IMG/VR virus record: IMGVR_UViG_3300022751_000018
Coordinates: 1-64,000 of that record
DNA length: 64,000 nt
Strand: one strand, 5' to 3'
Origin: a virus
Part shown: positions 10,265-37,177 of the stretch, in pieces
Layout: each line of letters opens with the position of its first letter
How positions within the stretch are numbered: position 1 is the stretch's first letter
Program-made: the position numbers and the translations under genes
The notes under the pieces: model-generated
What the model was told of the DNA's origin: nothing
Seen by the model: only the letters and a program-made list of their open reading frames with translations
Database searches by the model: none

Positions 10265-10270
10265 ATTTAT

Positions 10271-10346: not shown

Positions 10347-10355
10347 ATTTATTAT

Positions 10356-10428
10356 GTGAGTATAGCTCAGCGGTAGTAGCAGCGGACTCATAATCCGTCG
10401 GTCAATGGTTCGAATCCATTTGCTCGCA
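10356..10428 (+). tRNA. tRNA-Met/Ile2 type (anticodon CAT)
   Basis: Acceptor GTGAGTA/TGCTCGC with two G-U pairs. Anticodon arm GCGGA-CTCATAA-TCCGT. T arm AATGGTTCGAATCCATT. Confidence 0.6.
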
Positions 10429-10434
10429 ATTATG

Positions 10435-10559: not shown

Positions 10560-10916
10560 ATGAACTTAGAATTAAATGAAGAAGAGTTTGATGCTTTATT
10601 GAATATGTGCATCATGGCACTAACAGTAGTGCAGCATAATGGCAATGTAACTCAGGATGAGATTCACATGAATGCGTTGTTTAACAAGATTGTTGCTTTA
10701 AAACCGAATCGAGATGAGTTTATTACAAATGAAAGATTTAATAGGCTTCATTATACTTTTTTTCATCCTTACCTTGATCATTTTAAAAACTTGCTTGATG
10801 AAGATGCAGAGCAGGCATTAGAAGTTAATGAAGTGGTTGATGCAGAGAATGTACAAGAGTTAGAGGAGCCGGTTGAGGCTGAGGTTATTAGAAATAATTT
10901 TTGGGGTAGATTATGA
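10560..10916 (+). CDS. hypothetical acidic protein
   Basis: 118-aa ORF, first gene after the tRNA cluster. Confidence 0.4.
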   Translation: MNLELNEEEFDALLNMCIMALTVVQHNGNVTQDEIHMNALFNKIVALKPNRDEFITNERFNRLHYTFFHPYLDHFKNLLDEDAEQALEVNEVVDAENVQELEEPVEAEVIRNNFWGRL

Positions 10917-11269
10917 AATTTTTAGAAGCGGCGAATAAGTTTAAAAAGATAAGGATGCCTAGCTGGTCAACTATATCTTTTGTAGAAAATGTTAATGGGT
11001 CATTAAAAATTAATTGCATGCTAACAACATCAGACCTTTCATCTGACGACTGGGAAGAATACAAAGAGCCACGCAAGTATCTTGAAAACAACAAGGAAGC
11101 TATGCAGGCTTTGATAGATGGCAAGAAGATTTCTAAAGACGCTTGGGGTGATGGTCGTTTTTTTACTCTTGATAAAGATGGATTTATAGTTGATAAGGAC
11201 GGTGATTATATTGATCCAACATGGCCCACCCCAAATTATCATGGCAAGTTTTATGTTGTTGAGGATTGA
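10913..11269 (+). CDS. DUF2829 (Tad2-like) family small protein
   Basis: N-terminus MKFLEAANKFKKIRMPSW fits the M.F.EAL..LK.GKK.RR..W pattern. DDWEEYKEPRKYL...AMQALIDGKK segment is shared with ORF 27913. Confidence 0.35.
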   Translation: MKFLEAANKFKKIRMPSWSTISFVENVNGSLKINCMLTTSDLSSDDWEEYKEPRKYLENNKEAMQALIDGKKISKDAWGDGRFFTLDKDGFIVDKDGDYIDPTWPTPNYHGKFYVVED

Positions 11270-11541
11270 TGATATCAGGCTTTGAAATAAAGAAAACCTT
11301 AAAACTTGTAAAGCCATCATCTAATACTTATAAGGCACTTAGAGATAGAAATCCTTTGTGTAGCATATTCTATTGTTTCGGTTGTGATCTTTATGTTGTT
11401 TCTTATATTTTTGGGCCAAATATAAACATGATGATATGGTTAGAATCAGGCGGCACTGCTTATGATTTGGATCACTTTGATTATGATATTCAGCCTAGGC
11501 TTGCTATGTGTGGACATAGTTATGTCACATTTTAAAATTAT

Positions 11542-11609
11542 GATTCAGTAGCTCCAATGGAAGAGCCCCGAAAGGGAGTGGTGCAGGGTTCGATTCCCTG
11601 CCTGAGTCA
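11542..11609 (+). ncRNA. tRNA-like element lacking an anticodon arm (replaced by a CCC-GAAA-GGG tetraloop hairpin)
   Basis: Acceptor GATTCAG/CTGAGTC. Consensus D arm GCTCCAATGGAAGAGC. Consensus T loop GGTTCGATTCC. Total 68 nt. Confidence 0.35.
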
Positions 11610-11626
11610 ATAAATAGGATTAAATT

Positions 11627-11905
11627 ATGGAAATAGAGATAGAAAAAAAATATAATTTTACTATGACTCAGATAGAGTATAACAATATAAGTGATTTATT
11701 ATTATTGGCAAGGAATATCATAGAGTATGCTTCATTCGAAAATTCTGATCTATCTTCTTGTAGAGAAAAAGCATTTGATATTGTAGAAAATTTTAATTTA
11801 TATACTCCTTATTGTAAGGAAAAGTCATTTTTTTTCGAGGATGAAATTTTGGCTCTTGCTTCTAAAAACATAGCCACAAGGATTAGTATTCATGGCGGCA
11901 TTTAA
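11627..11905 (+). CDS. hypothetical protein
   Basis: 92-aa ORF preceded by an AT-rich RBS. Confidence 0.35.
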   Translation: MEIEIEKKYNFTMTQIEYNNISDLLLLARNIIEYASFENSDLSSCREKAFDIVENFNLYTPYCKEKSFFFEDEILALASKNIATRISIHGGI

Positions 11906-11935
11906 AATAATTTTAAAATATATTGGAGTAAAACA

Positions 11936-12310
11936 ATGAGCTTAGATGTTTACTTATGGAAAGAAAAGTATGTTTGTTATGGAAAGCCAAGCTTAGAAGG
12001 ACTAAAAAGAGAAGATGAGATGGTATTTTGTCAAAATATTACTCACAACTTAAATGAAATGGCCATGGCTGTTTCTGATGATTTCTATAAGGCTTTGTGG
12101 CGTCCAGAAGAAATAAATTGTAAGTATGCAAAAGATATAGTGCTTATTCTTTCAAAAGGATATTTTGAATTATTAGGTAATGAAGAAGTATATAAAAAAT
12201 ACGATTCTCCAAATGGCTGGGGACTTTATAAAAACTTTTTGCCATGGGTTAAAGAATATTTGGATGCTTGCAAAGAACATCCAGATTCAGAAATAGAAGT
12301 AAGTCGATAA
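11936..12310 (+). CDS. hypothetical protein
   Basis: 124-aa ORF with RBS GGAGTAAAACAATG. Confidence 0.4.
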   Translation: MSLDVYLWKEKYVCYGKPSLEGLKREDEMVFCQNITHNLNEMAMAVSDDFYKALWRPEEINCKYAKDIVLILSKGYFELLGNEEVYKKYDSPNGWGLYKNFLPWVKEYLDACKEHPDSEIEVSR

Positions 12311-12330
12311 ACATAAATAGGAGAAACAAA

Positions 12331-12816
12331 ATGAACGAATACAGAAGGTTTATACCTGAAAATGATTTTAAACCAAAAAAAGGAGAAATTTACGAAAAGA
12401 TTGGAACCTTGAGATCCGTTAACGGCGTAAAATATAGCAAGTGTGATGATGGTATTGATATAATTGGAAGATTTTCACAAATAACTGAGCCTTTAGGTCG
12501 TGGAACTATATCAATTGGCTATGAGGAATTTGAAAAATTCTGGACCGGAGGAAAGATTGAATTTATAGGTCCATTCGAGTATAGAAAATTAACCGATCCC
12601 GAGGAAATATTAAAATATAAAGATGTTAATGAGAAAAAAATAAATGAAAAACGCGTATTTAAAACGGAGAATTTAGAGCTTGCAGATCCTGAGGATCTTT
12701 ATGAGCTTCTTTTTCACTGCGCTAAGGAACTTGCTAGATTAGAAGAAATAAGACTTTATACTTCAGCAGGCCATCCTGAGTATTACAGGAATATATTAAA
12801 AACTATTATCGCTTAA
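12331..12816 (+). CDS. hypothetical protein
   Basis: ORF with a probable start at 12331 (RBS AGGAGAAACAAAATG) rather than the upstream overlapping ATG at 12268. Confidence 0.4.
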   Translation: MNEYRRFIPENDFKPKKGEIYEKIGTLRSVNGVKYSKCDDGIDIIGRFSQITEPLGRGTISIGYEEFEKFWTGGKIEFIGPFEYRKLTDPEEILKYKDVNEKKINEKRVFKTENLELADPEDLYELLFHCAKELARLEEIRLYTSAGHPEYYRNILKTIIA

Positions 12817-12828
12817 AAGGAAACAAAA

Positions 12829-13701
12829 ATGACACTACTAATCATCGGCCTGTTAGGCACAATCTCAGCTTTTCTATTCATGAACTTTTTCAATGATGGT
12901 CGAGGTAATGTATTTAAAAAATATCGATTATTCTCTTTGCTAATATTTGGATTCTTCTTTGCCTTAAGCGCGTGTACGATTATCCATCCGGGGAACATCG
13001 GCGTTAAATCGACTCTAGGTAAAGTTGACCCTATCTCATTGCCAGCGGGATTTTACTTCATTAATCCCGTGTCTGATGTTCAGCAAATATCAGTTAGATT
13101 AGATAAGGCATCATTAGAAAGCGCCACGGCTAGCACAAAAGATCTTCAGGTGGTTCACACTGATATCGTCGTTAACTATCGATTAGAGGGTGCTGACGTC
13201 GCCAATATCTACAAGAACTTTGGCTTTGATCTTAAAGACAAGGTTTTGCTGCCTGCGATTAATGAGTCATTTAAGGCGATTACAGCGCGATATAACTCAG
13301 AAGAGCTAATCACCAAGCGTGATGTCGTTTCGGCCGCTATCAAGCAGGAATTGCAAGATAAGGTGGTTAAATACGGTTTGTCTATTAGCGAGATCTCTTT
13401 GGTGAACTTTGGCTTCTCTCAAGAGTATCAATCGGCTATCGAACAAAAGGTTATCGCCACTCAAAGCAAGCTTAAGGCTGAGCAAGATCTACAGCGTATC
13501 AAGGTTGAAGCGGAGCAGAATATTGCTAAAGCACAAGGTGAGGCTGAGTCTATTCGCATTCAATCTGCGGCGATTGAAACAAGCGGCGGCGTTAACTACG
13601 TTCATCTTAAAGCAATCGAAAAATGGGATGGTCAATTGCCTGCGACAGTAGTCGGAGGCGAATCTATGCCGTTTGTTAATATTCCAAGTGTTAAAAAATA
13701 A
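12829..13701 (+). CDS. SPFH / band-7 (prohibitin / HflC-like) domain membrane protein
   Basis: N-terminal transmembrane helix, then an SPFH core (VKSTLGKVDPISLPAGFYFINPVSDVQQISV...VHTDIVVNYRL). C-terminal coiled-coil region (QSKLKAEQDLQRIKVEAEQNIAKAQGEAE). Confidence 0.65.
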   Translation: MTLLIIGLLGTISAFLFMNFFNDGRGNVFKKYRLFSLLIFGFFFALSACTIIHPGNIGVKSTLGKVDPISLPAGFYFINPVSDVQQISVRLDKASLESATASTKDLQVVHTDIVVNYRLEGADVANIYKNFGFDLKDKVLLPAINESFKAITARYNSEELITKRDVVSAAIKQELQDKVVKYGLSISEISLVNFGFSQEYQSAIEQKVIATQSKLKAEQDLQRIKVEAEQNIAKAQGEAESIRIQSAAIETSGGVNYVHLKAIEKWDGQLPATVVGGESMPFVNIPSVKK

Positions 13702-13712
13702 AGGACAAAAAA

Positions 13713-14111
13713 ATGATCACACTGCCAGATATAATGGAAAGATTAAATGAGGTTTTGAATGACAGCAATATGCGTATTGGAATTAACGAAATAAAAGTAA
13801 GTGATTTATTTATTCTAAATCTAAGGCATGACATAAGTATTATCGCAAAACGTATTATTAATCATAATTTCGGTTCTTTAGAAAAAGAAATCGGTGCGAA
13901 AAATACTGATGATGATAATAAAAATGAGGATTGCAAAAATTACATTAAACTTAATCCTTATTTAGCGCCTGATTATAAAGAACCTGTTAAATTTTCAAAA
14001 AAAGAAAAAATAAACATATCGGGCGGTATTTTTAGCTTAATATTAAATGCAGAGGATAAATCAGAAGAAAATTTTTTATATGGCCTAATGGATAAGGTGC
14101 GAGAACTATGA
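13713..14111 (+). CDS. hypothetical protein
   Basis: 132-aa ORF. Confidence 0.35.
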   Translation: MITLPDIMERLNEVLNDSNMRIGINEIKVSDLFILNLRHDISIIAKRIINHNFGSLEKEIGAKNTDDDNKNEDCKNYIKLNPYLAPDYKEPVKFSKKEKINISGGIFSLILNAEDKSEENFLYGLMDKVREL

Positions 14112-14605
14112 AAATTAAAGAATATATTTTTGTTTATCCAAAAGAAAGCAGTCTTGGAGGAATATGCTCAAGTCTTTTGCAAAATCAGGTCCTTGATGAA
14201 ATTAAAAATGGGTATGAACTTTACGGAACAACATTTTATTGCCATAGCAGAAAGCTTATGTGTCAAGCAATGGTAAAATACGAAGAAGAAAATACAGAAT
14301 CGGCCAAGAATTTTTATTCTGAAATTCGCAATCATGAAACATTTGAAGAGGCCACTATCCAAAGACTTTTTCACATGGATATAAAGCTAGATCATATTAA
14401 GGAAGCTTTAGTTAAAAAAATAGTAAAAATGCATGAGGAATCAAAGATAAAAGAACGAAAATTGGTCGATTGCTTTACTTCAGTAATAGCATGTGGAGAA
14501 GACAGCGTTTACTGTGAAAATACGAAGAAAAAACTATTATCTGATGGCTGGGAGATTATTGAAGATAATTATTTGTCCTTAAAAATGGTGAAGTATGACT
14601 CGTAA
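14108..14605 (+). CDS. small protein of a local paralog family (tandem domains each ending ..MVKYE/D)
   Basis: Internal ...CQAMVKYEEE and C-terminal ERKLVDCF...LSDGWEIIEDNYLSLKMVKYDS. Paralogous to 15893..16225. Confidence 0.4.
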   Translation: MKIKEYIFVYPKESSLGGICSSLLQNQVLDEIKNGYELYGTTFYCHSRKLMCQAMVKYEEENTESAKNFYSEIRNHETFEEATIQRLFHMDIKLDHIKEALVKKIVKMHEESKIKERKLVDCFTSVIACGEDSVYCENTKKKLLSDGWEIIEDNYLSLKMVKYDS

Positions 14606-14789
14606 AGTTCTTGGCATAGTAACCTTAGGAGAATGTCACTTTAATAGCAGGGATGATTATTTAAAAGCAATAGATGAATACATATCACAAGGTTTCGAAA
14701 AGCTCATGGATGAGTTTTTTGACGAGGGAGATGATGTATTTATGAAAAAAGGCTTCTATCAGGGGTTGGTGAAATATGAGCGAATTTAA
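14595..14789 (+). CDS. hypothetical protein (ends ..GLVKYERI)
   Basis: 64-aa ORF whose start codon overlaps the upstream stop (TATGA junction). Confidence 0.3.
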   Translation: MTRKVLGIVTLGECHFNSRDDYLKAIDEYISQGFEKLMDEFFDEGDDVFMKKGFYQGLVKYERI

Positions 14790-14984
14790 GTGGAGCTATT
14801 GCTAATGAAATCAATCTTATTCAACGAAAACGACATTTTAGTTCTTGGAACTATATTAAATACAATCAAAGAAAAAGGATCGCTATGTTTTTGTGATGAA
14901 TGTAGCGAGGTATATTCAGATTTTTATGATTCAATAGGTTCGCAATTAATGGAATTTTATGAAAAAGCACCAAGGCATTAACTA

Positions 14985-15314
14985 ATGATTAACAATAAAA
15001 AACTTCCTGATGGATTTATTCAAATAGCGGGCTTTGATCCTGGGTATGGCGTTAACACTCGCGGCGAGATTTACTCATGCAAAACTGGTAAACTTCTTAC
15101 CAATAAATGCCTGTCTCACAACGGGCAAATAATTGTCGGATTGATGGACAACCGTTTTTGCAGATATGTTACGGTGGCAAGCATCATGATTCGCACATAT
15201 ATTGCATCTACATTTAACTGCAAATCATTTCAAGTGGTTCATCTCGATGGGGATAAATCTAATAACTCGATTGATAATCTTGATTTGAGAATTAATCTAA
15301 AAAGTAGAAAATAG
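14985..15314 (+). CDS. NUMOD4 / HNH_3-type homing endonuclease (small)
   Basis: IAGFDPGYGVNTRGEIYS (NUMOD4-like) and HLDGDKSNNSIDNLDL (HNH_3 motif). Confidence 0.55.
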   Translation: MINNKKLPDGFIQIAGFDPGYGVNTRGEIYSCKTGKLLTNKCLSHNGQIIVGLMDNRFCRYVTVASIMIRTYIASTFNCKSFQVVHLDGDKSNNSIDNLDLRINLKSRK

Positions 15315-15892
15315 ATGAAAATAACGCATATAAGAACAAAGGAAAATGAAGGCAGAAAGTTTTGCAGGATGCCTAAGAATTTTGTTCGCAGGGATTTATC
15401 TATGTCATGGGAAGATTTTGAAATAATTGTGATGGAGCACATGCTTTCTCGATTTATGAAGGTATGCCCTCATTGCATGAAAAGACTTAGATTTTCTTCG
15501 GAAGAAGCATGAGCTATATGCCTTTATTCATCCTTGGCCAAGGAAGCAATGATAAGTTAATTGCATTATTTATCATAATATTTGTTGCTATATTTATCGT
15601 ATGCTGTATACTTTGCTTCATTGATTTGATAAGGAAATGATGATGACAAGGTCAGAAACAGCTATAGCCAAGCTTACCCCAGAAACTAATTATCTTCTTA
15701 TATTGCTAGCTAGAAAATGGCGTCTAACCGTATCAAGTACTGTGGAGCAGATCATCAAAAACAGCATTGATTCTTCGACAATTACTCTTGATAAGAATGA
15801 ATGTAACTTCTTGCAAGATTTATATTCGTCGGTTAACGAGCAACAAAGAAAACGATTTGAAGGCATTATAAAACAAATAGAGCGAGATAAAA

Positions 15893-16225
15893 ATGAAAGA
15901 AACGATGATTGATGGTTATTTCCTAGCTGGCAATGGAGATCAACAGTTTACACTGGAAGAAGCGGTGCAATGGGGCGGTGCCAGTGGGTATCAAATTCAC
16001 GGCTCTCCAATTGTTTTTAATGGTCGAATTATTCAGCCGATGATTCAGTATTATTCAGAAGAAGAAGAAGGTAAAGAGCGAAAGATAGTTGATTGTTTTC
16101 ATGTGGATGCTTTTTCAATGATTAATGTTGATTTTATTGAGAAATCTACATTAGAACTTAATGATGGCTGGGAAACAATTTACAAAGATAACTCTAAGCT
16201 AAAAATGGTGAAGTATGAATCATAA
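15893..16225 (+). CDS. small protein of the same local paralog family (..ERKIVDCF..NDGWETIYKDNSKLKMVKYES)
   Basis: Protein- and DNA-level similarity to the 3-prime end of 14108..14605. Confidence 0.4.
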   Translation: MKETMIDGYFLAGNGDQQFTLEEAVQWGGASGYQIHGSPIVFNGRIIQPMIQYYSEEEEGKERKIVDCFHVDAFSMINVDFIEKSTLELNDGWETIYKDNSKLKMVKYES

Positions 16226-16673
16226 AGTTAAATTCTTGAGTCTTCCAGAGGATTTCAAGGATGGCATAAAGTTTGCTCAATATAATTTTTCTACTTTTAG
16301 GGCTCTAAATAGTATGCAGCTAGTCCAAGTTTCTGGAACTACAGACCTATTTATAGCTCAATTTTGCAATAGTGGCGGATTTATGTTTCTTCTTGAGGAA
16401 TGTGAAGCGTCATTTCAGCAAAGCGGATTTCCTTTTGAGGTTTTGTGGAGCGCTGATCTTCCTGATTACATTTATCAGTCTATTGTTGAATGTGAAAAAA
16501 TAAAAGATTTTAGAATTTTTAAAACATTATGCGAGCTTGCCAGGCAAAGAAAAAAGAATGCAGGAGTTTCTATTCAACTGTCATTTAAAGAGCTTGGCCA
16601 GATAACAAGCAATAATATTTCAAAGGAGCTTAGATCTAAGCTTAATCAATATGCTGATAAGGAGTATGAATAA
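16215..16673 (+). CDS. hypothetical protein immediately upstream of rtcB
   Basis: 152-aa ORF whose stop/start junction with RtcB overlaps (..KEYE* / MNHKV). Confidence 0.4.
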   Translation: MNHKVKFLSLPEDFKDGIKFAQYNFSTFRALNSMQLVQVSGTTDLFIAQFCNSGGFMFLLEECEASFQQSGFPFEVLWSADLPDYIYQSIVECEKIKDFRIFKTLCELARQRKKNAGVSIQLSFKELGQITSNNISKELRSKLNQYADKEYE

Positions 16674-18796
16674 TGAATCACAAGGTAATCTCTGGATTAT
16701 TTCATAAGCCAATTAAAATGTGGACGAATGGTTTGTCAGTTGAAGACGATGCGCTGACTCAGTTGAAAAATACTGCGTCAATGTCATTTGTTCGCCCTCA
16801 TGTCTCCGTAATGCCCGATGTTCATCTAGGCAAAGGGTCAACGATTGGGAGCGTAATACCTACGCAAGGCGCGATAATTCCGGCAACAGTTGGTGTTGAC
16901 ATTGGATGCTTTGTTGGCGAAACAAAGATTCCTCTGCTTAATGGAACACAAAAAACTCTTAAAGAGCTGGCAGAATATACAGAGCCGTTTTGGGTTTATT
17001 CTTGCAGTAATTTTAAAGTTGTTGCAGGTAAAGCTACTTGTAAAAAAACCAGAAAAGATGCTGATCTAGTTAAAGTTACTATATCTGGAGGTGATGAAAT
17101 AATATGCACCCCAGATCATAAATTTATGTTATTTGATGGTAGCTATAAAGAAGCCAAGGATCTTTCATATAATGAAAGTCTAATGCCTCTTTATAGAAAA
17201 TGGCATAAAAAAGATGGCTATGAAAGCTCTAACTGTGGATACAACACATCAAATTTGACTCATTGGGCATCATGGGAATCTATACATGGAGAAATACCCA
17301 AGGGATATGTTATTCACCACAGAGATCATTTTTATCTTAACAATGATCCAGATAATTTAGAGGCAATGACTGCAAGAGATCATTCAAAGCATCATAGGTT
17401 GGACAATCAAACATTTGACAATTCAAGCGAAGAGTTTCAAAAATTAAGAATGGCAGGAATAAAAAGAAGAGTATCAGATCCTGTGTCTTTTGAGAAAATG
17501 GTCAAGGTTGGAACTGAAAATATTAAAAAATACATGGAAGAGTCAAGAGAGGATTTTCTCGACAAGGTGAAGGATAATGGAAAAAGAGGGGCGCCATATT
17601 TACATAAATTTAATACGTCGCCACGCTCATGTGATGAATGCGACCATACTTCTAAGAACCCAGCGGCATTAAATTGGCATAAAAGAAAAGAGCATGGTAG
17701 TAATCATAGGGTCATTTCTGTAGAAAATCTTGGATTTAAGGATGATGTATATTGTCTAACAGTAGAAGACCATCACAACTTTGCATTATGCGCGGGTGTT
17801 TTTGTTCATAATTGCGGAATGATGGCCATTAAAACATCTTTGATGGCTTCAGATCTTCCCGATAACTTATTTGGCATTCGGTCGGCAATTGAATCGGCCG
17901 TTCCCCATGGTAGAAATGGCGGCCAAGGTCGAGACAAGGGAGCCTGGGGAAATATTCCACATGGAATAAGAAATATTTGGAATGCACAACTTTTAACTGA
18001 TTTTTATAAAATAGTCGATAAATATCCTTCACTTAGAAAGACTAACAATGACAATCACTTAGGAACTCTAGGCACGGGAAACCATTTTATTGAGCTCTGC
18101 ATCGATGAAGATAGTCATGTCTGGGTTATGTTGCACTCAGGATCTCGCGGCGTAGGCAATGCGATAGGCACGTTATTCATTGAGTTAGCAAAGAAAGACA
18201 TGCAGCGTTATTTCATTAACTTACCTGATGTCGATTTAGCTTATCTGCCAGAAGGATCTGTTTATTTTGACGATTACATCTTTGCATTAAATTGGGCTCA
18301 GAAGTTTGCAGCGTTGAATCGTGAAATCATGATGGATAATGTCTTGTCAGCGCTTCACTCAATCATAACGAAGAAATTCTGCTGTCTCGAAGAAGCAATA
18401 AACTGCCATCACAACTACGTTCAAAAGGAGCATCATTTTGGAAAAAATCTTTGGATTACTCGTAAAGGCGCTGTGTCTGCCAAGGAATCTCAGTTGGGAA
18501 TTATTCCTGGCAGCATGGGCGCTAAAAGCTTTATTGTTCGAGGTCTTGGCAATGCCGATTCGTTTCATTCGTGCAGTCATGGCGCGGGAAGGGTAATGAG
18601 CCGAACTCAGGCTAAAAAAATAATAACGCTTGATGATCATATCAAAGCCACGAGTCATGTCGAGTGCAGAAAGGATGAAGATGTGATCGACGAGTCACCG
18701 TCTTGTTACAAAGATATTGATTCAGTCATGGCGGCTCAGCCTGATTTGGTTGAAATTGTTCATACACTACGACAAGTAGTCTGTGTTAAGGGGTAA
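16673..18796 (+). CDS. rtcB: RtcB-family RNA 3-prime-phosphate/cyclase-end ligase, interrupted by an intein
   Basis: Extein motifs: MPDVHLGKGSTIGSV, GVDIG|C..., GTGNHFIELC, CSHGAGR. The spliced extein totals 78 + 328 aa. Confidence 0.85.
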   Translation: MNHKVISGLFHKPIKMWTNGLSVEDDALTQLKNTASMSFVRPHVSVMPDVHLGKGSTIGSVIPTQGAIIPATVGVDIGCFVGETKIPLLNGTQKTLKELAEYTEPFWVYSCSNFKVVAGKATCKKTRKDADLVKVTISGGDEIICTPDHKFMLFDGSYKEAKDLSYNESLMPLYRKWHKKDGYESSNCGYNTSNLTHWASWESIHGEIPKGYVIHHRDHFYLNNDPDNLEAMTARDHSKHHRLDNQTFDNSSEEFQKLRMAGIKRRVSDPVSFEKMVKVGTENIKKYMEESREDFLDKVKDNGKRGAPYLHKFNTSPRSCDECDHTSKNPAALNWHKRKEHGSNHRVISVENLGFKDDVYCLTVEDHHNFALCAGVFVHNCGMMAIKTSLMASDLPDNLFGIRSAIESAVPHGRNGGQGRDKGAWGNIPHGIRNIWNAQLLTDFYKIVDKYPSLRKTNNDNHLGTLGTGNHFIELCIDEDSHVWVMLHSGSRGVGNAIGTLFIELAKKDMQRYFINLPDVDLAYLPEGSVYFDDYIFALNWAQKFAALNREIMMDNVLSALHSIITKKFCCLEEAINCHHNYVQKEHHFGKNLWITRKGAVSAKESQLGIIPGSMGAKSFIVRGLGNADSFHSCSHGAGRVMSRTQAKKIITLDDHIKATSHVECRKDEDVIDESPSCYKDIDSVMAAQPDLVEIVHTLRQVVCVKG
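16907..17812 (+). other. intein (302 aa) inserted at the catalytic Cys of the RtcB GVDIGCGM motif; carries an HNH endonuclease plus a zinc-finger domain
   Basis: Starts CFVGETKIPLLNG and ends VFVHN followed by CGMMAIK. Internal HNH motif YVIHHRDHFYLNNDPDNLEAMTARDHSKHH and zinc finger CDECDHTSKNPAALNWHKRKEH. Confidence 0.8.
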
Positions 18797-18799
18797 AAA

Positions 18800-19120
18800 A
18801 TGAAATGGTTAGCAATTACAGAAACAGAGCCAGAGCCTAATAGGTTGGTTATATTCAGAGCTATTAAGAGGGATGATGATAAATCTTTATTTAAAGGATG
18901 CGCATCATTTCCGACAAAATTAGACCCTATTCCATGCGAGATTGGCTATTTTGTTTCAAGATATAGCAATATAGAGGGAACTTTTTTTATATTACGAGGA
19001 GTTCAAAAAGAAAATTTCAATAAGCTAATTGAATTTAAAGTTGAGCTTTGGGGCATGGGTGAAAAGCACCAATTCTGTTACTTGGATGAAGAAGAGCTAG
19101 GGGATAAAAATGTTAGTTGA
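18800..19120 (+). CDS. hypothetical protein
   Basis: 106-aa ORF. Confidence 0.35.
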   Translation: MKWLAITETEPEPNRLVIFRAIKRDDDKSLFKGCASFPTKLDPIPCEIGYFVSRYSNIEGTFFILRGVQKENFNKLIEFKVELWGMGEKHQFCYLDEEELGDKNVS

Positions 19121-20822
19121 GCTAAGCGAAAAAGAAATACTATTGGTGGATTTTCTTTTAAATAATTTTGGATATAGAGATGATTACATTAACTATGATG
19201 ATGAATCTTATGACCCAGAATTGCTAGAAATAATGAAAAATAGGTTCGACAATATTTTATTAGCTAGAGTTGGGGTCAATAATGAATGATAAATTAGAAT
19301 TATTAGCCGAGCATTCAATAATCAATAAAATAGAAGAAGATGATGAGAATTTATTCATAATGACTAAAATTGGAATACATGAACTAAGAATTGTAATCAG
19401 AAAGCATGATAGCGGCAATCAGCTTGATGAAATAGATATCTATATAAACAGAAATAATTGCTTTATTGGCGATAAAGAAGATATTCAGATAGCAAATATT
19501 GATCTTGGTTTTATAAGAAAAATGCTACCCGTCTGTGAGCTAATAGAGGATTACTCAAAAAATGAAACCGTTTAAATTTAGAGTCTGGGATAATCAAAAC
19601 AAGAATTTTGACCTAACAGATCAATGTTTTATTTCAAGTGAAGGAAGAATTTACCATAAATCTGCTTATATATGCGTTGATATTACAGATCGTATTGATA
19701 TTGAAATATCCTACTCAATCGGACTTTTCGACAAAAATGATAAACAAATATTCGAAGGGGATGTATTTCATTATGGAGACTGTAATTACTTAGTAAAATA
19801 TTGCTCATACAGCGCTAGATTTATAATGCGCCACTTCGATTATGATGATGAATATGATTTTAATGATATGGAAGATTGGAATGATGTTGAAATAATCGGA
19901 AACAGATTCGAAAACCCCGAAATTTTGGATAAATTAAAGTGAAAGTTTACTATAAATATGATGGCATTATAGAAATAGAAGGCGTGAAAGTTCCGATGTC
20001 ATTTTTCAATGAAGAGAAAGACAAAGAGTATTTTTCAATGACTGATATGTTTCCTGGCGTTTATGACAAAGGAATGATTACGGACCGAAAATTAACCATG
20101 ATAAAAAATAAATATTTGGAGAGCTTTAAATGAACATAGAAGACAAAAAACTAGACCTTGAGATAATGAAAAAATGGCGAGAAGAATCAAGGAAACAAAC
20201 TCTTGAAACCTTGCCTGCATTTATTGAGGAAATTAAAAGCTATAAGCACTGCTATAGCTCTATAGTAACCGGCATGGCTTCGGCGGCTAATGCGACAATA
20301 TCAGCGTTAGATAGAAGTGAATGCGGAGGAATAACAGGATTTCAATCGGTCTGCCTTATGTGGGAGATGGTTGGTTTATTGACTTTTAAAGAAGGCCCCA
20401 TGAAGCTTATTTCATTTGAAGATATGCTTTATCCTCAGAATGAAGAAAAATTCTCAAAAGTAATGACAAAAAAAACGTTTGAATGTTTGCAAGATAAAGC
20501 AACAGAACTCTTGAAAGACAAAATGTTTTCAGCGCATCCAGACGTTAAAAAACACTGGCAATCTATTGTTGATGGCGTTGTTCCGTTTGGTTATGAGATT
20601 GAGTATTTAAAATGAAAGAAGTAACTATTAATTGTAAAAATTTAACGCCTTTACCAAGTTATAAAAACAGTGATCTATGGTTGATAGAGCTTGTTAAGGA
20701 ATTAGAGGCCGAAGAGGCATTTAAATTGGGGCTTTCTCATATCCATTTCAGCGTTTCTGCAAAGACCTATTCTAAAATGATAAAAGTGGGTAACTTTTTT
20801 TACGACATACAAATAAATAAGA

Positions 20823-21200: not shown

Positions 21201-21382
21201 TGAACATAGCTATTTTTGTAATTGTTACTATGTACATGCTGCTTGGAATTGTTGGCGCCATGGGTCATCGGAAGGCTGCCGGAGAAGATCTTCAAGCAAA
21301 GAAAACTCTTGCGATTATTTGGGTCATGATGATCCCACTTTTCATTTTGTCTTTGATTAAACTTTTTATAGGATAAAATTAA

Positions 21383-21613
21383 ATGAACCTATTTGATGCT
21401 CATAATAATCATTTAATGAACGGTAGAAAAATAAAGGCATCGCATTGGCGAAAAGATTCTTTTCTTCAAGAGAGGAAAATTGAAACTTATTTTTGCGGAC
21501 AATATGGCGAAAATACTTGCATAGTAGATCAAGATGGAAGGTTTGTTTCTCATTTTTACAAAGACTATTGGCCTCGTGAATATTACATGTACGAATGGGA
21601 GGTTGTTGAATGA
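21383..21613 (+). CDS. DUF2829 (Tad2-like) family small protein
   Basis: MNLFDAHNNHLMNGRKIKASHW ... EWEVVE. Confidence 0.3.
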   Translation: MNLFDAHNNHLMNGRKIKASHWRKDSFLQERKIETYFCGQYGENTCIVDQDGRFVSHFYKDYWPREYYMYEWEVVE

Positions 21614-21775
21614 ACACATGGGTTTTAATAATTCAGCTTAGTTTGTCTCAATATAATAGCATTATCACTATTCCTAACTTTAATTCTCAATCTACATGCC
21701 AGAAACAGGCTGATTATTTAACCAGAAGCCAAAATTTACCTCGAGCGTTCTGCATAGAAACAGACTCAAAGTTTT

Positions 21776-21799
21776 AAAGGTGTCGAATTCGACACCTTT
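21776..21799 (+). terminator. perfect palindromic hairpin AAAGGTGTCGAATTCGACACCTTT
   Basis: 9-bp stem and 4-nt loop in an intergenic region. Only a short T tract follows. Confidence 0.35.
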
Positions 21800-21837
21800 A
21801 CATCAACAAATCATCGCATTATTTATTGCAATATCCA

Positions 21838-21866
21838 TTGACAATACATATCGGTAAGTATACACT
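21838..21866 (+). promoter_or_regulatory. consensus-like promoter: TTGACA, 17-nt spacer, TACACT, with an upstream ATCGCATTA box
   Basis: Read directly from the sequence. Confidence 0.45.
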
Positions 21867-21891
21867 GATAAAAATTAAAAAGGAGATTGAA

Positions 21892-21948
21892 ATGTGCCCG
21901 TTACTAATAATTATCGCCTTCTGTGTAGTTGTGGATCTGATTAAATGA
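21892..21948 (+). CDS. 18-aa hydrophobic micro-ORF (MCPLLIIIAFCVVVDLIK) overlapping the start of the next gene
   Basis: Strong RBS AAAGGAGATTGAAATG. Its stop overlaps the ATG of the HNH_3 gene (AAATGATT). Confidence 0.25.
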   Translation: MCPLLIIIAFCVVVDLIK

Positions 21949-22415
21949 TTTTAAATACTTTGGAAGGATTTATTTGTATAAAAGGGTTTGAAGGGTACTA
22001 TTCATTAAATGATAATGGAGATGTTCTCTCAGATAAAAGAAGAGTTCTTTTAAGAAGAAGAGGGCCATCAAAAAGTAGTGTTACGTTAAGCAAAAATGGA
22101 GAAAAAAAATGTTTTTCCGTATCAAGTTTAGTCGTTGAACATTTTAGTGATATTTCCTTGAAAAATAAAAGAAATTTAGTTTTTGATTACATAGATGGAA
22201 ATTCCCATAACAAAAACATTAAAAACATAAGAATAGTTAAAAGAAGCCCTTTTAAAAAAAACTATAAAGATAACTTATTTAAAAAAAGAGTATTAAACAA
22301 TTTAGACAAAATCTGTTTTTTTAGCATAAGATCGGCAGCTAAATTTTATAAAAAAGAACCAATATCAATAAAATATAAGTGTAAAAATAAAATAAAAGGA
22401 TTTCAGTTTATATGA
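21945..22415 (+). CDS. NUMOD4 / HNH_3-type homing endonuclease
   Basis: GFEGYYSLNDNGDVLS and DYIDGNSHNKNIKNIRIV. Confidence 0.55.
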   Translation: MILNTLEGFICIKGFEGYYSLNDNGDVLSDKRRVLLRRRGPSKSSVTLSKNGEKKCFSVSSLVVEHFSDISLKNKRNLVFDYIDGNSHNKNIKNIRIVKRSPFKKNYKDNLFKKRVLNNLDKICFFSIRSAAKFYKKEPISIKYKCKNKIKGFQFI

Positions 22416-22828
22416 AAATATACATACTCATGGCGTCACAGGGTGAATATTCTGATAGAGAAGAAACTCCCGTTAAAGCTTATTTAACCAGGGAGAAGGC
22501 AGAAGCAGCATTGCTGAAGGCTGACGAAGAAGAAAGGGTTCATCGGTATAAGCATAGCCTAGATAATGATTACTGTATTAATCCTGATGATCCATGGTTT
22601 GAAGAAACAACATATTTTATTAACGAAGTGGAGCTAGAGGAATGAAATTTTTAAAATTAAGTAATGCAGATGGGTCTATTGATTTGGTTAATCTTGATTC
22701 CGTTGTCGCTATTTTTGAGGCCCCGAGATCATCAGGTCTAATCATATTTTCTCTAATTGGCGGTAAGAATTATGAGTATAAAGCTTCATCATCATTAATG
22801 GCTCAGGAATTTATAAAAGGAATATTCG

Positions 22829-23287
22829 ATGAAAACAGTCATATTTGACCTAGACGGAACGTTGGCGGATGTATCCCATAGGAGACGTTTTAAAGACGAT
22901 GGCTCGTTTGATTGGAAGTATTTTAATGATCCTGAGAATATTAAGAATGACACTCCTAATAAGCCTATAATTGATTTATACAATCATTTTAGGCTTGGAG
23001 AAAAATACAAGTCTGTTGTTCTATCAGGAAGGATGAAGGATCATTTTGATATAACCGTTGATTGGTTTAGAAAGCATGTTGATGCTTACATGTTGATATC
23101 TCACACCATTATTATGAGAGAAATTGGAGACTATCGAGAAGACTATATCATCAAGAAAGAAATGCTAGATAATTTGCTAAGCAAAGGCCACGAAATAGCA
23201 TTCGCAATCGATGATCGGGATCAGATCGTAGAGCTATGGCGTAGTCTTGGTATTACTTGTCTTCAGTGTGCTAAGGGGAATTTTTAA
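22829..23287 (+). CDS. HAD-superfamily phosphatase (Pnk 3-prime-phosphatase-like / nucleotidase-like)
   Basis: Motif I VIFDLDGTLADV. Motif II-like VVLSGR. FAIDDRDQ. Confidence 0.6.
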   Translation: MKTVIFDLDGTLADVSHRRRFKDDGSFDWKYFNDPENIKNDTPNKPIIDLYNHFRLGEKYKSVVLSGRMKDHFDITVDWFRKHVDAYMLISHTIIMREIGDYREDYIIKKEMLDNLLSKGHEIAFAIDDRDQIVELWRSLGITCLQCAKGNF

Positions 23288-26200
23288 ATGATTTTAGCCC
23301 TGTACTTTATTATTGGAGCGGTTATCTCTTTTTATTTTACAAAATATGTTGCTAAACCTGATCTTGAAAGGGTAGAGGATGATTTCATGATTGGGCTTGT
23401 GTTTATTGTAATAATGATAGTTTGGCCAGCTATTTTTATAGTTTCTTTACTATTGTTTACTTGTAATTTTATTGGAAAATTATTTTAACAAAGGGGGATT
23501 TTTGATGGACCACATAGCAAGAGATATCATTGATGTTATGTACACTCATAATTGCAATATTTGGCACAGCTCTACCGGAGATTATCTGGAAAGAGGGTGC
23601 GAAAATAAATCTGGACTTGAAGAAAGGCTAAGAAATGTAAAAGATCAGTCTAAACAGCTTCATAAAAAATTAATTGAGTTATCAGAGCATTTAAAACATA
23701 CAGGAGTGCTTTGATGAACAAAAAAGACTATGAATTTAAAATAGCTAGGCTCGAAGAAAAAATAGAAATCCTGGCTGATTGTATCATTACAATGGGGCAA
23801 CATTTTGATACTTCTCCCATGACAACTAATGAATGGCGAAACTTATTCCTGGAGCTTCAGGCCATGATTTTCAGAGGAGGAGAATTACCAGGCGGAAAAA
23901 AAATTGCTCATTATGAATGTAAATATAAATGATTACAGGAGTTTTGAATGAGAAAAGTAACTAAGGAAGAGGTGCTTCATTATCTTGCGAAGAACCAAGG
24001 CAAATGGAATATGTTTTTTGAGATAGAGCATGAGTTAGGCATAGAGCCACGATCAGGATGTGGCCCTAATAAGCGTCATGCAGTAACGCTGAGAAAACTT
24101 TATAAATCTGGAATGATAGGCGGGTGCATTTGCGGTTGCAGAGGTGATTTTGATATCACTGATAAGGGTTTGGAATTTATTGGAATTGAAAGATATGCTG
24201 AATATCATGGATATTAGCTTTATAAAACAGTTTTTCTGTAAGCATAAATTTCAGTTTACACATGAAATTATTGATTATTATGGGAGTTACAGGGGTCGAG
24301 ATGTTTATAAGCATGGCGGATTCAATACATGCGAATTATGCGCAAAAAGAAAGAGGATGTATTAAATGAAAAAAAATCAAGTATGGGTTGAATATGACTC
24401 GCAAACAAATTCTATTAGTCTTGATAATATTAACGTGGTAGAAAGACAGCAGAGATCGTATTGTCCTTCTATTTCAAATCCTGATGTACTATCAGAAGAA
24501 TACAAAATGGATATAAAAAATTACTGTCTTCTGGAGTTTTCTGTTGACGATAGAATAGATAGAGAAAATTTAGCATTAGAGGTATTCGAAAGAATAAAAA
24601 AAGAGATGCTAAATTATTCTCAGCCTGATCTAAAAAGATTTAGAGAGTCGTTGCTTATGGTTGCATATTCAGTATATCCAAAAATGTTCTGCCCTAGTGA
24701 CAAAGCCATTTTTGATAAAATGAATGAACTAAGGAGGCTAGCAGAATGAAAAAAACCAGCTTCCTATGTACCTTCCTTCTCTGTTGGATAATATGCACGC
24801 TGATTATGTCGATAATATATCATTTACCTGCGTTAGTTTTGGCATCAATTTTATGCCTTGCTGTTCTTGTAATAGTTGAAAATTCAGATAAAAAAGGAAA
24901 ATGAAATGAAGAAATACGATGTCACTATATGCAGCAAAGCTTCATATAATCTAACTATCATGTCTGAATCTGAGGATCAGGCATTAAGAGACGCAGTAAA
25001 ATTTATGGAAGGACAGGATTTTTATTATAATGGAATATCTATAGGCAATTTCAATTTCAATATAACCGATACTTTTGTCGGAGAGGCTTAATTATGAACC
25101 ACCATGAATCATACGCTTTACAAAAAGAACGTGAGCTTGACGAAATAAGAAACACAGATGAATTTATAGCCCTTTCCTTTGAAGAAAAAAACAGAAGGAC
25201 AATGGAGTTTTTAGAGGCTAACTTCACTATTAAGCGACCTACTAAAGTTATTCAAGACATATCTTGAGTCTCAATTAATTTATATTATATCGCTATAATC
25301 CTTTACTTATTTATCGCATTATGATAATCTATTCATGATCAAATAATAAAAGGCGAACAAATGCTAAACTTACGAATAAACAAAACAGAACACGAAACTT
25401 TGCTTGATATGATGTCACTTGCAATGATGGTCGCATACGAAGCTGGTGCTGATGATGCTCATTATAGAAGCATGACATCTATGTATAACACAATCCTGGA
25501 AATGAGTCATGATAGAAAAAACGCTCTGTCAGACGAAAAGCTTGACATGCTTCAGGATAAATATCTTTTCCCTGCTTGCATGACTTTTTACAAGAAAATG
25601 AATGATGACATCAAAGAGGCGGTAGAAGTGGTTGCGGCACCTATCGAGTCGCAGGTGATTCGATGATTAAAGAAACTATACTTGCTTATGCGCTTTTGTG
25701 TGATTCTAGCGGGTTCAGCGTGGACAGCGCATTAATCGGCCTTAATGCGCAAGTTAAACAACATATTCAAGAAGGCTGGCAGCCCTTTGAATCTCCTTTA
25801 AAATCTGCTCAATCAATGACAGTTTGCCAAGCCGTCGTTAAATATCAGGAGTAGCTCATGCTTGTCGCTCACCCAAGAACAGAGAAACAATTTATCGATG
25901 ACATCACATGCAGACTTGAACAAATAATAAATATTTCTTCAGAAATGAAGCGTGATATAGATAGAATTAAGTGGTATAAATTCCAAATTGATAGTTTGAA
26001 TAAAAATATTTCTTTTCTAACAGAGGATTTTGACAGCTTCATTGAGATTCTTAAATATGAGAAATAACGATGCAATATGGAAAAGGATATTATCTCCTCA
26101 AGATCCTGTGGTTACTGAAGATGACATATTTTACAGAGAATCATTAGAAAGATTGCATAAGAATGGAATTAGCTATTGGGCTGAACAATTCGAGCAAAAA

Positions 26201-27912
26201 GTCGTTGATGCAAAAAAGGACTTTATGCCCATGCTCACCATGGTTTCAAAAGGAATTTTTATTCATTCTCATTATTACGATGGCCATCGATGCATAGGAA
26301 ATCCAAATAAAATTTGCGACAAAATGTCAGTTAGTGATATAATGGAATCAACGGATTGCTTTAATATTTATGGAAATTTGAAAGAGCATAAACTGATAGA
26401 ACTACATAACAACACTTATATTTTAACTGAAAAAGGATCAGTTGTGTTTAACAGAATTAAGGAAAGTAAAAATGAAAGTTAATTTAACATTAAAAGAGCT
26501 TGAGTGGATTATCACAGGAATATATACGGCTAATGGAGAATCAGCGTATGAACATGAAGAAACCGATGTCATGATTTTTGCAAGAAAACTAGAAAATATA
26601 ATGAAAAACACCACGACAATAGGAAAGTAAAAATGCTAATTGACATCGACAATCGAGAGGCTCACATCCTAATCGAAGCTCTTTTCCCTGAAAAGCACAG
26701 GCAAGATAAAAGTTTAGCATACAAAGAATTTTGCGAACTGCTTCAGCTTAAAATTATTCGTCATAAAGACAAACTTTTGTCTCAATTTAAATGCAACGAA
26801 TACGAGAGAACATAAATATGCTAGTAGAGCTATCTTACGACGAAATAGAATACTTAAGACTTGGAATCATGAGCTTAAGACACACGCTTGATCTTTCGCC
26901 TAAGCAATCAATCGAGAACTCTTACTTAGAGATTAAACTTTATGAATCAATCACGGGAGATAAAAATGCTAGTTGATTTAACAGAGTGGGAGGCCAAGGT
27001 TCTTAGAGCTGAGTTTTCAATGCCTCATACTCTTGGCAGATTTTTGCCGGAAGCTTATAAAAAACGTGATGCACTTTTAGAAAAGCTAAATAATATGGCG
27101 GATAATTTCAATGAGGATTATAAAAGTACGTGCAAGCCTGAAATAACGAATGGCGGCCATCTTAAAATATCTGACGATTTATTATTAGATATTTTCATTA
27201 AAAAATTCTTAAGCAAAGACGATGTTAATACTATTCTTGATGTTTTCTACGCTAGAAAATGTGGCATGGATCCTTCGCTTAAGCAGTACAAAGATATTAA
27301 AGATTTAGAACTAAAACTTAGAAAACTATATCCAGAGGTAGAAAAATGATAATCGAAAAAGACAAAAAATGGCTTGAGCTATCTGCTAAGTACAATATTA
27401 ATAGAATTCTCAAGCACTACGAGCTGGCAAAGCTAAATCATACATGTTTTGAATCTATAGACATAATTTTGCATGAGCTAAACTCACTGAAAAAACATCT
27501 TAACAAATTTATTGAATCTAAAGAGGAAAAATAATCAATGAAACCCGAAAACGGAATTAACCATCTAAAAAATATGAACGCTAGAATCGCGAAAGGAATA
27601 GAGCGACGCCGCGTGTTTAGCAAGTACTTTAAAAACGGCAGAGACGAAGGTCAGTTTGACAAAGCATGTCGAGCGCTAGAAACTGGGCTTGGCTATTCAG
27701 AAGAAGATTTTAACAACATTAAAGAGCTGTTGAAATTCGATGAACGCGTGCAGCTTGATGTCATTCGATCGTTTCTTAGTCATGAAGAAGTGGACGAAAT
27801 TATAGCTGGCCTAGGATGCACTCAATCAGAGTGCGGATTATCTCAAAATGAGATGAAATTTATCTCATCGATTTCACTTAAATTAGAAAAACTTTACGAA
27901 TAGGAGCATGAA

Positions 27913-28284
27913 ATGAACATATATGAAGCAAGTATAAATTTCGAAAAAATAAGAAGAAAGGGATGGCCTACGAAAAATTATCTTATATTAGGATTTAATA
28001 CGAAGATGTTTGAATCAAATTCTATAGATAATGATCAGTATTCTTTATCTTGGGATCAATTACGAGCCAATGACTGGGAAGAGTACAAAGAGCCTAAAAA
28101 GTATTTGACGACTAAAGAGGCTATGCAAGCATTGATTGACGGGAATAAGTTGCAAGCAGATAACTATGATGAAGATATCTTTATTTATCTTTGCGATCAA
28201 GGTCATATTTTGTTTAATCATGGGGCCGAGGCTTTTCCATGTTTCAGCAAAGATAGACAGTTTTACATATACGAGGGTGAATAA
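27913..28284 (+). CDS. DUF2829 (Tad2-like) family small protein, paralog of 10913
   Basis: MNIYEASINFEKIRRKGW. NDWEEYKEPKKYL..KEAMQALIDGNK. Confidence 0.35.
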   Translation: MNIYEASINFEKIRRKGWPTKNYLILGFNTKMFESNSIDNDQYSLSWDQLRANDWEEYKEPKKYLTTKEAMQALIDGNKLQADNYDEDIFIYLCDQGHILFNHGAEAFPCFSKDRQFYIYEGE

Positions 28285-37170: not shown

Positions 37171-37177
37171 AATCTTT

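Follow-up and report, generated by a model that had tools for sequence, protein, structure and literature searches.

Is a phage that carries several small Tad2-like genes equipped with a set of sponges for host immune signals, and are the encoded proteins Tad2 in more than fold? The question is raised by the virus record IMGVR_UViG_3300022751_000018, of which positions 1-64,000 (hereafter, the window) had been interpreted, in a sequence-only reading, as encoding an expanded family of four to eight DUF2829/Tad2-like proteins, candidates for an anti-Thoeris or signal-sponge role. The 311 open reading frames (ORFs) of at least 40 amino acids (aa) found in the window were compared, and each is referred to here by its first position. 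Four genes, which comprise six domain copies that are dispersed over 41 kb and strongly diverged, very probably belong to the DUF2829/Tad2 fold family. They display three architectures: a tandem double domain (10913 and 27913), a single domain (21383), and a fusion of a DUF2829 domain to a beta-alpha-beta-beta module (51817). We estimate a probability of about 0.5 for the joint statement that the phage encodes four Tad2-fold proteins (six domains) with a putative role in small-molecule sequestration, a figure in which the fold-family and the sponge parts are weighted together.

Identification of four candidate DUF2829/Tad2-fold proteins

The four ORFs (Table 1) exist as proposed and share an opening, M-x-[FLIY]-x-[ED]-[AI], after which comes a basic stretch, G(K/R/N)K. 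The sequence-only reading had given this opening as M.F.EA...K.GKKIR...W, a pattern from which 51817 departs because its 'R...W' part has no Trp. Of the 311 ORFs, these four alone contain the motif [DEN]W[EG][EIV][YV] (200 residue shuffles: mean 0.1, maximum 1). It had been described as C-terminal, which holds for 21383 only; in 10913 (residue 46), 27913 (residue 54) and 51817 (residue 59) it lies in the middle of the protein, where it closes the first domain. The longer segment DWEEYKEP(R/K)KYL..KEAMQALIDG(K/N)K reported for 10913 and 27913 is indeed common to both, which recognize each other with a phmmer expectation value (E) of 1e-16. The range originally assigned to the family, 10913-28284, omits 51817 and 52190, although both had been named as members.

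The genes look real because they lie on the same strand as their neighbours, are tightly packed with ATGA overlaps, are preceded by ribosome-binding sites and have counterparts in related contigs. All genes of this family and of the DUF1737-like family described below are on the plus strand, amid tightly packed small ORFs. The start of 10913 overlaps the stop of 10560 (ATGA), that of 51817 overlaps the stop of the Namat-like gene 50144 by 4 nt, and 21383 has an AGGA ribosome-binding site upstream. The counterparts of 10913 and 27913 are located in two separate related contigs (P0002, 66% identity; P0004), and the duplication is, therefore, old; P0004 resembles an orthologue of 27913 and is found in a syntenic context in contig L009. 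A fifth candidate, 34093, which consists of the end of an N-domain plus the linker (..HWEDFKESRKPIENKK), was dropped after profile E values of 2.7 and 4; it matches 10913 with a phmmer E of 1.6e-3 and is at most a doubtful degenerate remnant.

The Pfam family PF11195 (DUF2829, now named 'Tad2-like') has a gathering threshold of 25 bits. As the sequence-only reading had anticipated, it is the sole or top Pfam family of 10913 (20.9 bits), 27913 (20.7 bits) and 51817 (15.3 bits, aa 1-30), but all three scores are sub-threshold and 21383 has no Pfam match at all. NCBIfam returned nothing for any of nine small proteins, and the PHROGs matches were all to families without an assigned function. Neither a megablast search of the 10.5-28.5 kb region nor tblastn searches with 27913, 10913 and a relative (P0014) produced a match in 50,697 phage records. 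Given the sub-threshold Pfam scores, homology was examined by other routes.

At the level of a word index the family of 10913 is tiny, with five proteins, one of which (P0003) has a precomputed PF11195 match. The 10913-family profile, however, gathered 282 relatives (clusters at 50% identity) among 1.84 billion cluster representatives, and 66 of the best 91 relatives matched PF11195 at E <=1e-3. Searched against all PDB sequences, the family profile of these relatives matched Tad2/AcrIIA7 chains only: ModTad2 (E 3e-6), Myroides phage Tad2 (8V3E; E 4e-6), SptTad2 (E 1.8e-4), SPO1 Tad2 (E 1.9e-4), HgmTad2/AcrIIA7 (E 3.8e-4) and a second AcrIIA7 chain (9KZR; E 2e-3). The family profile was needed because single-protein phmmer searches of the PDB sequences were marginal for 10913 (Tad2 matches at E 0.18) and empty for 27913.

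A whole-protein hidden Markov model (HMM), derived from 113 relatives with lengths of 100-140 aa and containing neither 51817 nor 21383, singled out the four proteins from the 311 ORFs with E values from 2e-28 to 6e-6 (51817, 3e-8; 21383, 6e-6); the next ORF had an E of 0.5, and 14108 one of 0.9. Domain profiles made from outside relatives, with zero window sequences, recognized the C and N halves of 10913 (E 9e-15 and 2e-11), the C and N halves of 27913 (E 5e-13 and 6e-13), SPO1 Tad2 (E 4e-8), the N-domain of 51817 (E 7e-7) and 21383 (E 8e-6). Beyond these, the values rose to 0.64 for the C-module of 51817, 4 for 34093, 13 for 15893 and 21 for 25663. A search of 5.8 billion proteins with 21383 found only itself, which makes it an orphan at the sequence level.

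The proposed comparison of predicted structures with Tad2 also bore out the assignment for the C-domain of 10913. The AlphaFold2 (AF2) model of 10913 has a mean predicted local distance difference test (pLDDT) value of 68.7, and its top Foldseek matches in the PDB are Tad2 structures, with probabilities of 0.96-1.0 for the better-modelled C-domain of this one protein. In the model of 51817 the C-module has pLDDT values of 80-92, and the N-domain has values below 50.

A chance likeness of unrelated short, AT-rich ORFs would account for the sub-threshold Pfam scores and for the lack of any Pfam match or homologue of 21383, but it is hardly credible. Outside profiles separate the four ORFs from the next of the 311, the motifs occur at least 40-fold above the shuffled expectation, and the fold matches Tad2; for 10913, 27913 and 51817 this explanation is already refuted. 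Judged on sequence, the assignment of 10913 and 27913 to the DUF2829/Tad2 fold family is sound; that of 51817 is good, and that of 21383 acceptable.

Tandem domains and an uncharacterised clade

An alignment of the N halves with the C halves of the clade by hhalign gave a probability of 97.8% (E 8e-13), so that 10913 and 27913 are internal tandem repeats, with the linkers DWEEYKEPRKYL and DWEEYKEPKKYL, respectively, between their N- and C-domains. The detectable domains number two in 96 of 147 representative relatives (median length 126 aa), one in 42 and three to five in nine. Proteins with three to five DUF2829 repeats reach 943 aa, one of them has Clp_N domains, and the multi-repeat proteins pass the Pfam threshold. 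On the profile evidence, 10913 and 27913 are thus placed in a large uncharacterised clade of 'double DUF2829' proteins of ~120 aa. The window domains span 50-76 aa, against 89-104 aa in characterised Tad2 proteins.

The relatives of 51817 have a nearly invariant C-module, in front of which stands either a DUF2829-like domain (P0007, P0009) or a DUF1737 domain (P0008, P0010, P0011). Further clade members (P0013, P0017, P0026) have as contexts only contigs of 1-2 kb that consist of small ORFs. A scan of IMG/VR with the family alignment revealed one distant locus in a jumbo-size phage of 178 kb (UViG_3300006467_000563, L004:10001-10336), in which a DUF2829 domain and the 'DWEEYKEP' linker are followed by a different, unrelated helical C-terminus. 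The same linker before an unrelated C-terminus marks a recombination-prone domain boundary.

The sequence-only reading held that four such genes in one phage would be uncommon, and copy counts agree. A tblastn search with SPO1 Tad2 found 453 matching places in 428 phage records, so that, at the sensitivity of BLAST, phages as a rule have a single copy; these counts are a lower bound, and the four genes of the window would escape the same search. In phage phi4J1 three places match, and two neighbouring genes annotated as DUF2829 are among them. A 68-kb genome with four genes and six domains is unusual, yet the same in kind as known multi-copy phages.

Comparison of the ligand-binding site with Tad2

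Characterised Tad2 proteins are single-domain protomers that form a homotetramer with pockets at the protomer interfaces. SPO1 Tad2 (NC_011421 gp34.65) contacts glycocyclic ADP-ribose (gcADPR) through W25, N26, W73, S76, T78 and D79, and the corresponding site of HgmTad2 comprises W21/N22/G23 and W87/S90/T92/D93. The Trp-Asn-Gly (W-N-G) loop sits between beta1 and beta2 and touches the gcADPR diphosphate. HgmTad2 mutants W21A/N22A and S90A/T92A/D93A lose gcADPR binding (markedly reduced in W21A/N22A), and the site is reported to be conserved in ~99% of Tad2 homologues. Binding of the cyclic dinucleotides cGG and cGAMP by HgmTad2 and SptTad2 requires 35-41 extra residues, inserted between beta2 and beta5. 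Ligands differ between clades of the fold and include gcADPR, histidine-ADP-ribose (His-ADPR) and cGG/cGAMP; ModTad2 takes His-ADPR and not gcADPR.

Alignment to the outside-only profile places WNG at the loop position in SPO1 Tad2 and ModTad2. At the same position, the window domains have WST (10913-N), WGD (10913-C), WPT (27913-N), YDE (27913-C), RMV (51817-N) and WRK (21383). The loop is thus kept in 0 of 6 domains, and WNG occurs in 0 of 147 representatives of the clade. The W..S.TD segment, read in register from the terminal Trp, is C..T.SD in 10913-N, Y..S.DQ in 27913-N and W..G.NM in 51817-N, whereas the C-domains and 21383 align ambiguously; no domain keeps the full set. An equivalent of Asp79 is found only in 10913-N. 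Trp73 has its equivalent in 51817-N alone, and 27913-N has an aromatic residue there. The profile alignment of the window domains contains no cyclic-dinucleotide-binding insertion, and domains of 50-76 aa cannot accommodate one of 35-41 residues. SPO1 Tad2 and ModTad2, conversely, need long inserts when aligned to this short clade.

With the W-N-G loop missing, functional membership of the Tad2 family fails on a defining feature, and the anti-Thoeris gcADPR sponge that had been proposed is not inferable. The notion that these proteins work like a Tad2 is weakened less than the notion that they are Tad2, because ligand specificity shifts between clades. Loss of the loop in all copies and in the whole clade implies that a ligand is probably not bound in the manner of SPO1 Tad2 or HgmTad2.

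These results bear on the view that the window encodes four, or up to eight, true Tad2 sponges, which would bind Thoeris gcADPR (3'cADPR/2'cADPR) and/or CBASS dinucleotides in the canonical pocket and would have been duplicated against several systems. It is consistent with the fold family, the N-terminal helix and the 'GKK.R..W' motif, all as in Tad2, with the variation of ligand specificity between Tad2 clades, and with the location of 51817 within a NARP1-type operon (see below), since NARP1 opposes the depletion of NAD+ by type I Thoeris. We nevertheless consider it very doubtful: the W-N-G loop is missing throughout, the Asp79 and Trp73 equivalents are kept in single domains only, the domains are too short for the dinucleotide pocket, and four of the presumed eight copies are DUF1737-like.

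The NAD+ operon upstream of 51817

The fusion gene 51817 directly follows a Prs/Adps-like gene (49073; PF14572 and TIGR01251, E 1e-15) and a Nampt/Namat-like gene (50144; ~50% identity to phage Nampt/Namat-type genes by tblastn). The signature of NARP1 is a pair of Adps and Namat genes (bioRxiv 10.1101/2024.02.11.579819), and 49073 and 50144, a Prs-family gene just before a Nampt-family gene, show this two-gene signature as far as sequence assigns them. The DUF2829 copies had been said to sit alongside the NAD+ reconstitution genes. Such an operon does lie directly before 51817, but 51817 is the only one of the four with this neighbour, and conservation of the arrangement fails in L005, a syntenic relative in which RecT, an 89-aa gene and the fusion gene follow one another with no Adps or Namat gene. 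In the window the pair sits between RecT and 51817, where L005 (2722-4231) has only the 89-aa gene; the order in L005 makes the NAD+ operon look like a lineage-specific insertion or loss. A 39-kb contig with another relative of 51817 (P0007) has no Nampt gene nearby.

Proposed role of the Tad2-fold proteins

In the reading that we favour, 10913, 27913, 21383 and 51817 would be small, oligomeric, non-enzymatic binding proteins. The tandem protein would constitute a covalent pseudo-dimer, so that two chains could together restore a four-domain assembly like that of Tad2, with pockets at the domain interfaces. A small molecule would be sequestered by this assembly; the most plausible candidate is a nucleotide-derived signal of host immunity, and its mode of binding probably differs from that of gcADPR in SPO1 Tad2 or HgmTad2. 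Two observations argue for such a role: all Tad2-fold proteins with demonstrated activity in the literature searched are signal sponges, and 51817 is located in a NARP1-type operon, for which RyDEP provides a precedent of an anti-Thoeris gene inside a NARP1 operon.

Several points weigh against the favoured reading. No window copy attains the PF11195 threshold, and 21383 is without a Pfam match; confidence in the AF2 models is moderate or low (68.7 and 62.6), with poorly modelled N-domains; the W-N-G loop, a complete W..S.TD segment and the dinucleotide-binding insertion are all missing; and the NARP1 adjacency is not conserved in L005. A scan for sigma-70 promoters and terminators between 9.4 and 29.4 kb revealed no enrichment over shuffles and thus no evidence of promoters or of expression timing. 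On balance, and by analogy with characterised Tad2-fold proteins, we would put a sponge or anti-defence role, taken alone, at somewhat below an even chance. The proteins are plausibly sponges, not demonstrable gcADPR sponges.

A second expanded family of DUF1737-like proteins

The count of up to eight copies had included 14108, 15893, 25663 and 52190, for which a recurrent DGWE-type C-terminus was given. The group is real, but by Pfam and profiles it is DUF1737-like and not DUF2829. The Pfam family PF08410 (DUF1737) has a gathering threshold of 24 bits, which 25663 exceeds and which 14108 and 15893 fail to reach; the isolated C-modules, 52190 and 14595 have no PF08410 match. [DE]GW[EQ] is present in 14108, 15893, 25663 and 51817 and missing in 52190, so that the motif holds for the first three of the proteins named. 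The hallmark of the group is a terminal [MV]VKY[EDQ], which is found in 14108 (twice), 15893, 25663, 51817 and 52190 (shuffled mean 0.08); 14595 carries a related LVKYE ending.

An N-module profile made from three outside relatives has as its top six of the 311 ORFs 14108, 25663 (E 2e-5), 52190, 14595, the C-module of 51817 (E 1e-2) and 15893 (E 1.4e-2). The C-module profile recognizes 51817 (E 3e-32) and the orthologue of 25663 in a related contig (E 3e-6), and 15893 matches 14108 (E 9e-10) and 51817 (E 4e-4) by phmmer. The C-module of 51817 is predicted by AF2 to consist of one helix and three strands; its Foldseek matches (dodecin, ACT, NikR-like) are only weak and were not built on. On this profile evidence, 14108, 14595, 15893, 25663 and 52190 are taken to be a separate expanded family, unrelated to DUF2829, and the two families are joined only via the 51817 fusion. 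Homology between the 'DGWE' of the DUF1737-like module and the DUF2829 'DWE' was considered and set aside as probably absent (profile E 0.64, over a helix-strand stretch of 12 residues).

The expansion extends to relatives. Contig L005 contains orthologues of 14108 (L005:673-1176), of 25663 (56% identity) and of the paralogous pair 10560/25361 (L005:1166-1498). In the related metagenomic contig L010 (3726-5192), four consecutive two-module DUF1737-like genes (142, 119, 126 and 109 aa) each overlap the next.

The only experimentally assigned DUF1737 role in the literature searched is that of phi24B gp84, a hexameric capsid-binding anchor. This role points to another explanation, namely that the window proteins are protein-binding or structural modules (virion decoration, assembly, or inhibitors of host proteins), with DUF2829 and DUF1737 as interchangeable oligomerisation or docking domains. 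The exchange of DUF2829-like and DUF1737 N-domains before the same C-module among relatives of 51817 would fit generic docking. Further points in favour of this explanation are the DUF2829 proteins with three to five repeats (up to 943 aa long, in one case with Clp_N domains) and the loss of ligand residues. A structural match to the neck protein of phage 812 points in the same direction, but at a root mean square deviation (rmsd) of 3.3 Å and without a sequence match it is much weaker than that to Tad2 (1.8 Å). The genes, moreover, all have small accessory ORFs of the same strand around them and lie at a distance from the structural modules or opposite to them. We regard this explanation as rather unlikely.

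A further possibility combines both families: the WNG-less tandem clade may be sponges for a signal not yet assigned to Tad2-type proteins, and DUF2829 and DUF1737-like modules may be shuffled in a decoy battery of at least nine proteins. This proposal seems improbable on present evidence; if true, the DUF1737-like beta-alpha-beta-beta modules would represent a second, unrecognised anti-defence scaffold.

Comparison with known systems

The window proteins resemble the Tad2 proteins (SPO1 gp34.65; HgmTad2/AcrIIA7; SptTad2; ModTad2) in the N-terminal helix '(F/L)xEAlxxLxxGKKvrR..W', an antiparallel beta-sheet core, the domain end 'D(l)lAxDWe', mutual profile recognition and their nature as small phage accessory proteins. 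By contrast, three of the four are two-module proteins (two tandem, one DUF2829-DUF1737-like fusion), while Tad2 proteins are tetramerising single domains, and the window domains are shorter, lack the W-N-G loop and the beta2-beta5 insertion, retain at most part of W..S.TD, and remain sub-threshold in Pfam.

More than one DUF2829 gene per phage is also found in the Bacillus temperate phages phi4J1 (NC_029008 39288-39793) and vB_BtS_BMBtp3. There, two or three separate genes of 80-87 aa lie side by side, whereas those of the window are dispersed; one gene of this type is close to SPO1 Tad2 (52% identity). Two adjacent DUF2829 genes are likely the precursor state of the tandem-domain fusion.

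The DUF1737 family (PF08410; N-terminal capsid-binding domain of phi24B gp84/NanS-p) is matched by 25663 above threshold and by the others through profiles, and the predicted one helix and three strands of the 51817 C-module agree with the description of DUF1737. In phi24B gp84, however, the domain anchors an esterase, whereas here it forms free-standing accessory proteins of 63-165 aa with one or two modules, one module being fused to DUF2829.

RyDEP of mycobacteriophage DyoEdafos is likewise encoded by a small accessory gene in or beside an Adps-Namat operon, and by analogy an accessory gene beside NARP1 suggests that the two jointly counter Thoeris-type immunity. As a RyR-domain glycosidase, RyDEP degrades cyclic ADP-ribose (cADPR) signals, whereas 51817 is a predicted non-enzymatic Tad2-fold/DUF1737-like fusion whose adjacency to NARP1 is not conserved in L005.

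The DUF2829 family and its Pfam name 'Tad2-like' are known already. As defined here by sequence, the WNG-less short tandem clade, the DUF2829-DUF1737-like fusion with exchangeable N-domains and the co-expansion of two small-domain families within a single phage lineage appear not to be described in the literature searched. Few counter-defence proteins of phages are as widespread as those with the Tad2 fold, and the clades examined so far have each revealed a different immune signal. If the window proteins are sponges, their ligands could reveal signalling molecules or defence systems not yet tied to Tad2, as ModTad2 led to His-ADPR; the value of the locus is that it points to this uncharacterised clade and its putative ligand. 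As a caution, the label 'anti-Thoeris' is not transferable from the Pfam name to every DUF2829 match, and the DUF1737-like family, now set apart, would otherwise be liable to mislabelling.

Genome and neighbouring features

Table 1. Positions of the DUF2829, DUF1737-like and neighbouring features in the window
Feature	Position	Strand	Length (aa)	Description
10913	10913-11269	+	118	Tandem DUF2829 protein; N-domain aa 1-50 (nt 10913-11062), C-domain aa 55-118 (nt 11075-11266)
27913	27913-28284	+	123	Tandem DUF2829 protein, paralogue of 10913; N-domain aa 1-58, C-domain aa 61-123
21383	21383-21613	+	76	Single-domain DUF2829-like protein; ends YEWEVVE
51817	51817-52197	+	126	Fusion protein; DUF2829-like aa 1-~64, DUF1737-like beta-alpha-beta-beta module aa 72-126; ends MMVKYE
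34093	34093-34251	+	52	Rejected fifth-copy candidate
49073	49073-49894	+		Prs/Adps-like, NARP1-type pair
50144	50144-51820	+		Nampt/Namat-like, NARP1-type pair
14108	14108-14605	+	165	Two-module DUF1737-like; PF08410 17.9 bits; N-module profile E 1e-9
14595	14595-14789	+	64	Weak single-module DUF1737-like; ends LVKYERI; N-module profile E 7.5e-3; no Pfam match
15893	15893-16225	+	110	Two-module DUF1737-like; PF08410 16.4 bits; C-module profile E 4e-3
25663	25663-25854	+	63	Single-domain DUF1737; PF08410 25.7 bits, above threshold; start overlaps 25361 stop
52190	52190-52399	+	69	Single-module DUF1737-like; overlaps end of 51817; N-module profile E 2.6e-4; no Pfam match
10560	10560-10916	+		Upstream neighbour of 10913; paralogue of 25361 (phmmer E 2.5e-8); no Pfam match
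25361	25361-25666	+		Paralogue of 10560; no Pfam match
RtcB RNA ligase	16673-18796	+	707	Apparently interrupted by an intein
Phosphatase	22829-23287			PNKP-type HAD phosphatase
tRNA clusters	10191-10429; 37098-37251
Small ORFs	19110-19289; 26442-27349; 27538-27903	+		Open '(M)L(V/I)(D/E)L(T/S)xxExxxL'
Endonuclease-like	14985-15314; 21945-22415; 54049-54741	+		Three homing-endonuclease-like paralogues
DUF2800/PD-(D/E)XK nuclease	45132-45869; 46703-47353	+		Profile positions 6-242 and 255-337
Head protein	4385-6265	-	626	Mu F-like
Large paralogues	40000-42449	-		Two adjacent, DUF285/BspA-like repeats

The ends of the window are joined in the ENA record k141_1923607 (L008; 68,422 bp with a terminal overlap of 141 bp) by 4,281 bp, which makes the genome circular or circularly permuted, with 68,281 bp. 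The joining segment contains genes for E217/Pa193-type tail sheath and tube proteins and no further DUF2829 copy. The phage, which is uncultivated, has a complete 68,281-bp genome with a myovirus-type structural module.

The paralogues 10560 and 25361 (101-118 aa) each overlap the next gene by ATGA, namely the tandem DUF2829 gene 10913 and the DUF1737 gene 25663, respectively. The RtcB RNA ligase is apparently interrupted by an intein with an HNH-type endonuclease (..GVDIGC|FVGETKI ... VFVHN|CGMM..); together with the PNKP-type phosphatase and the tRNA clusters it suggests a tRNA-repair counter-defence set. A weak intein-splicing Pfam match in the Mu F-like head protein points to a possible second intein. 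The small ORFs that open '(M)L(V/I)(D/E)L(T/S)xxExxxL', among which 26942 and 27538 can be recognized as paralogues (E 9e-4), may constitute a third expanded small-protein family. The three homing-endonuclease-like paralogues are related with phmmer E values of 1.6e-6 and 3.9e-6, and the third has a YozE SAM-like domain. The DUF2800/PD-(D/E)XK nuclease is divided between two ORFs, and the ~830 bp of small ORFs that separate its halves may be an insertion. The two large paralogues with DUF285/BspA-like repeats (E 5e-96) are probably duplicated receptor-binding proteins.

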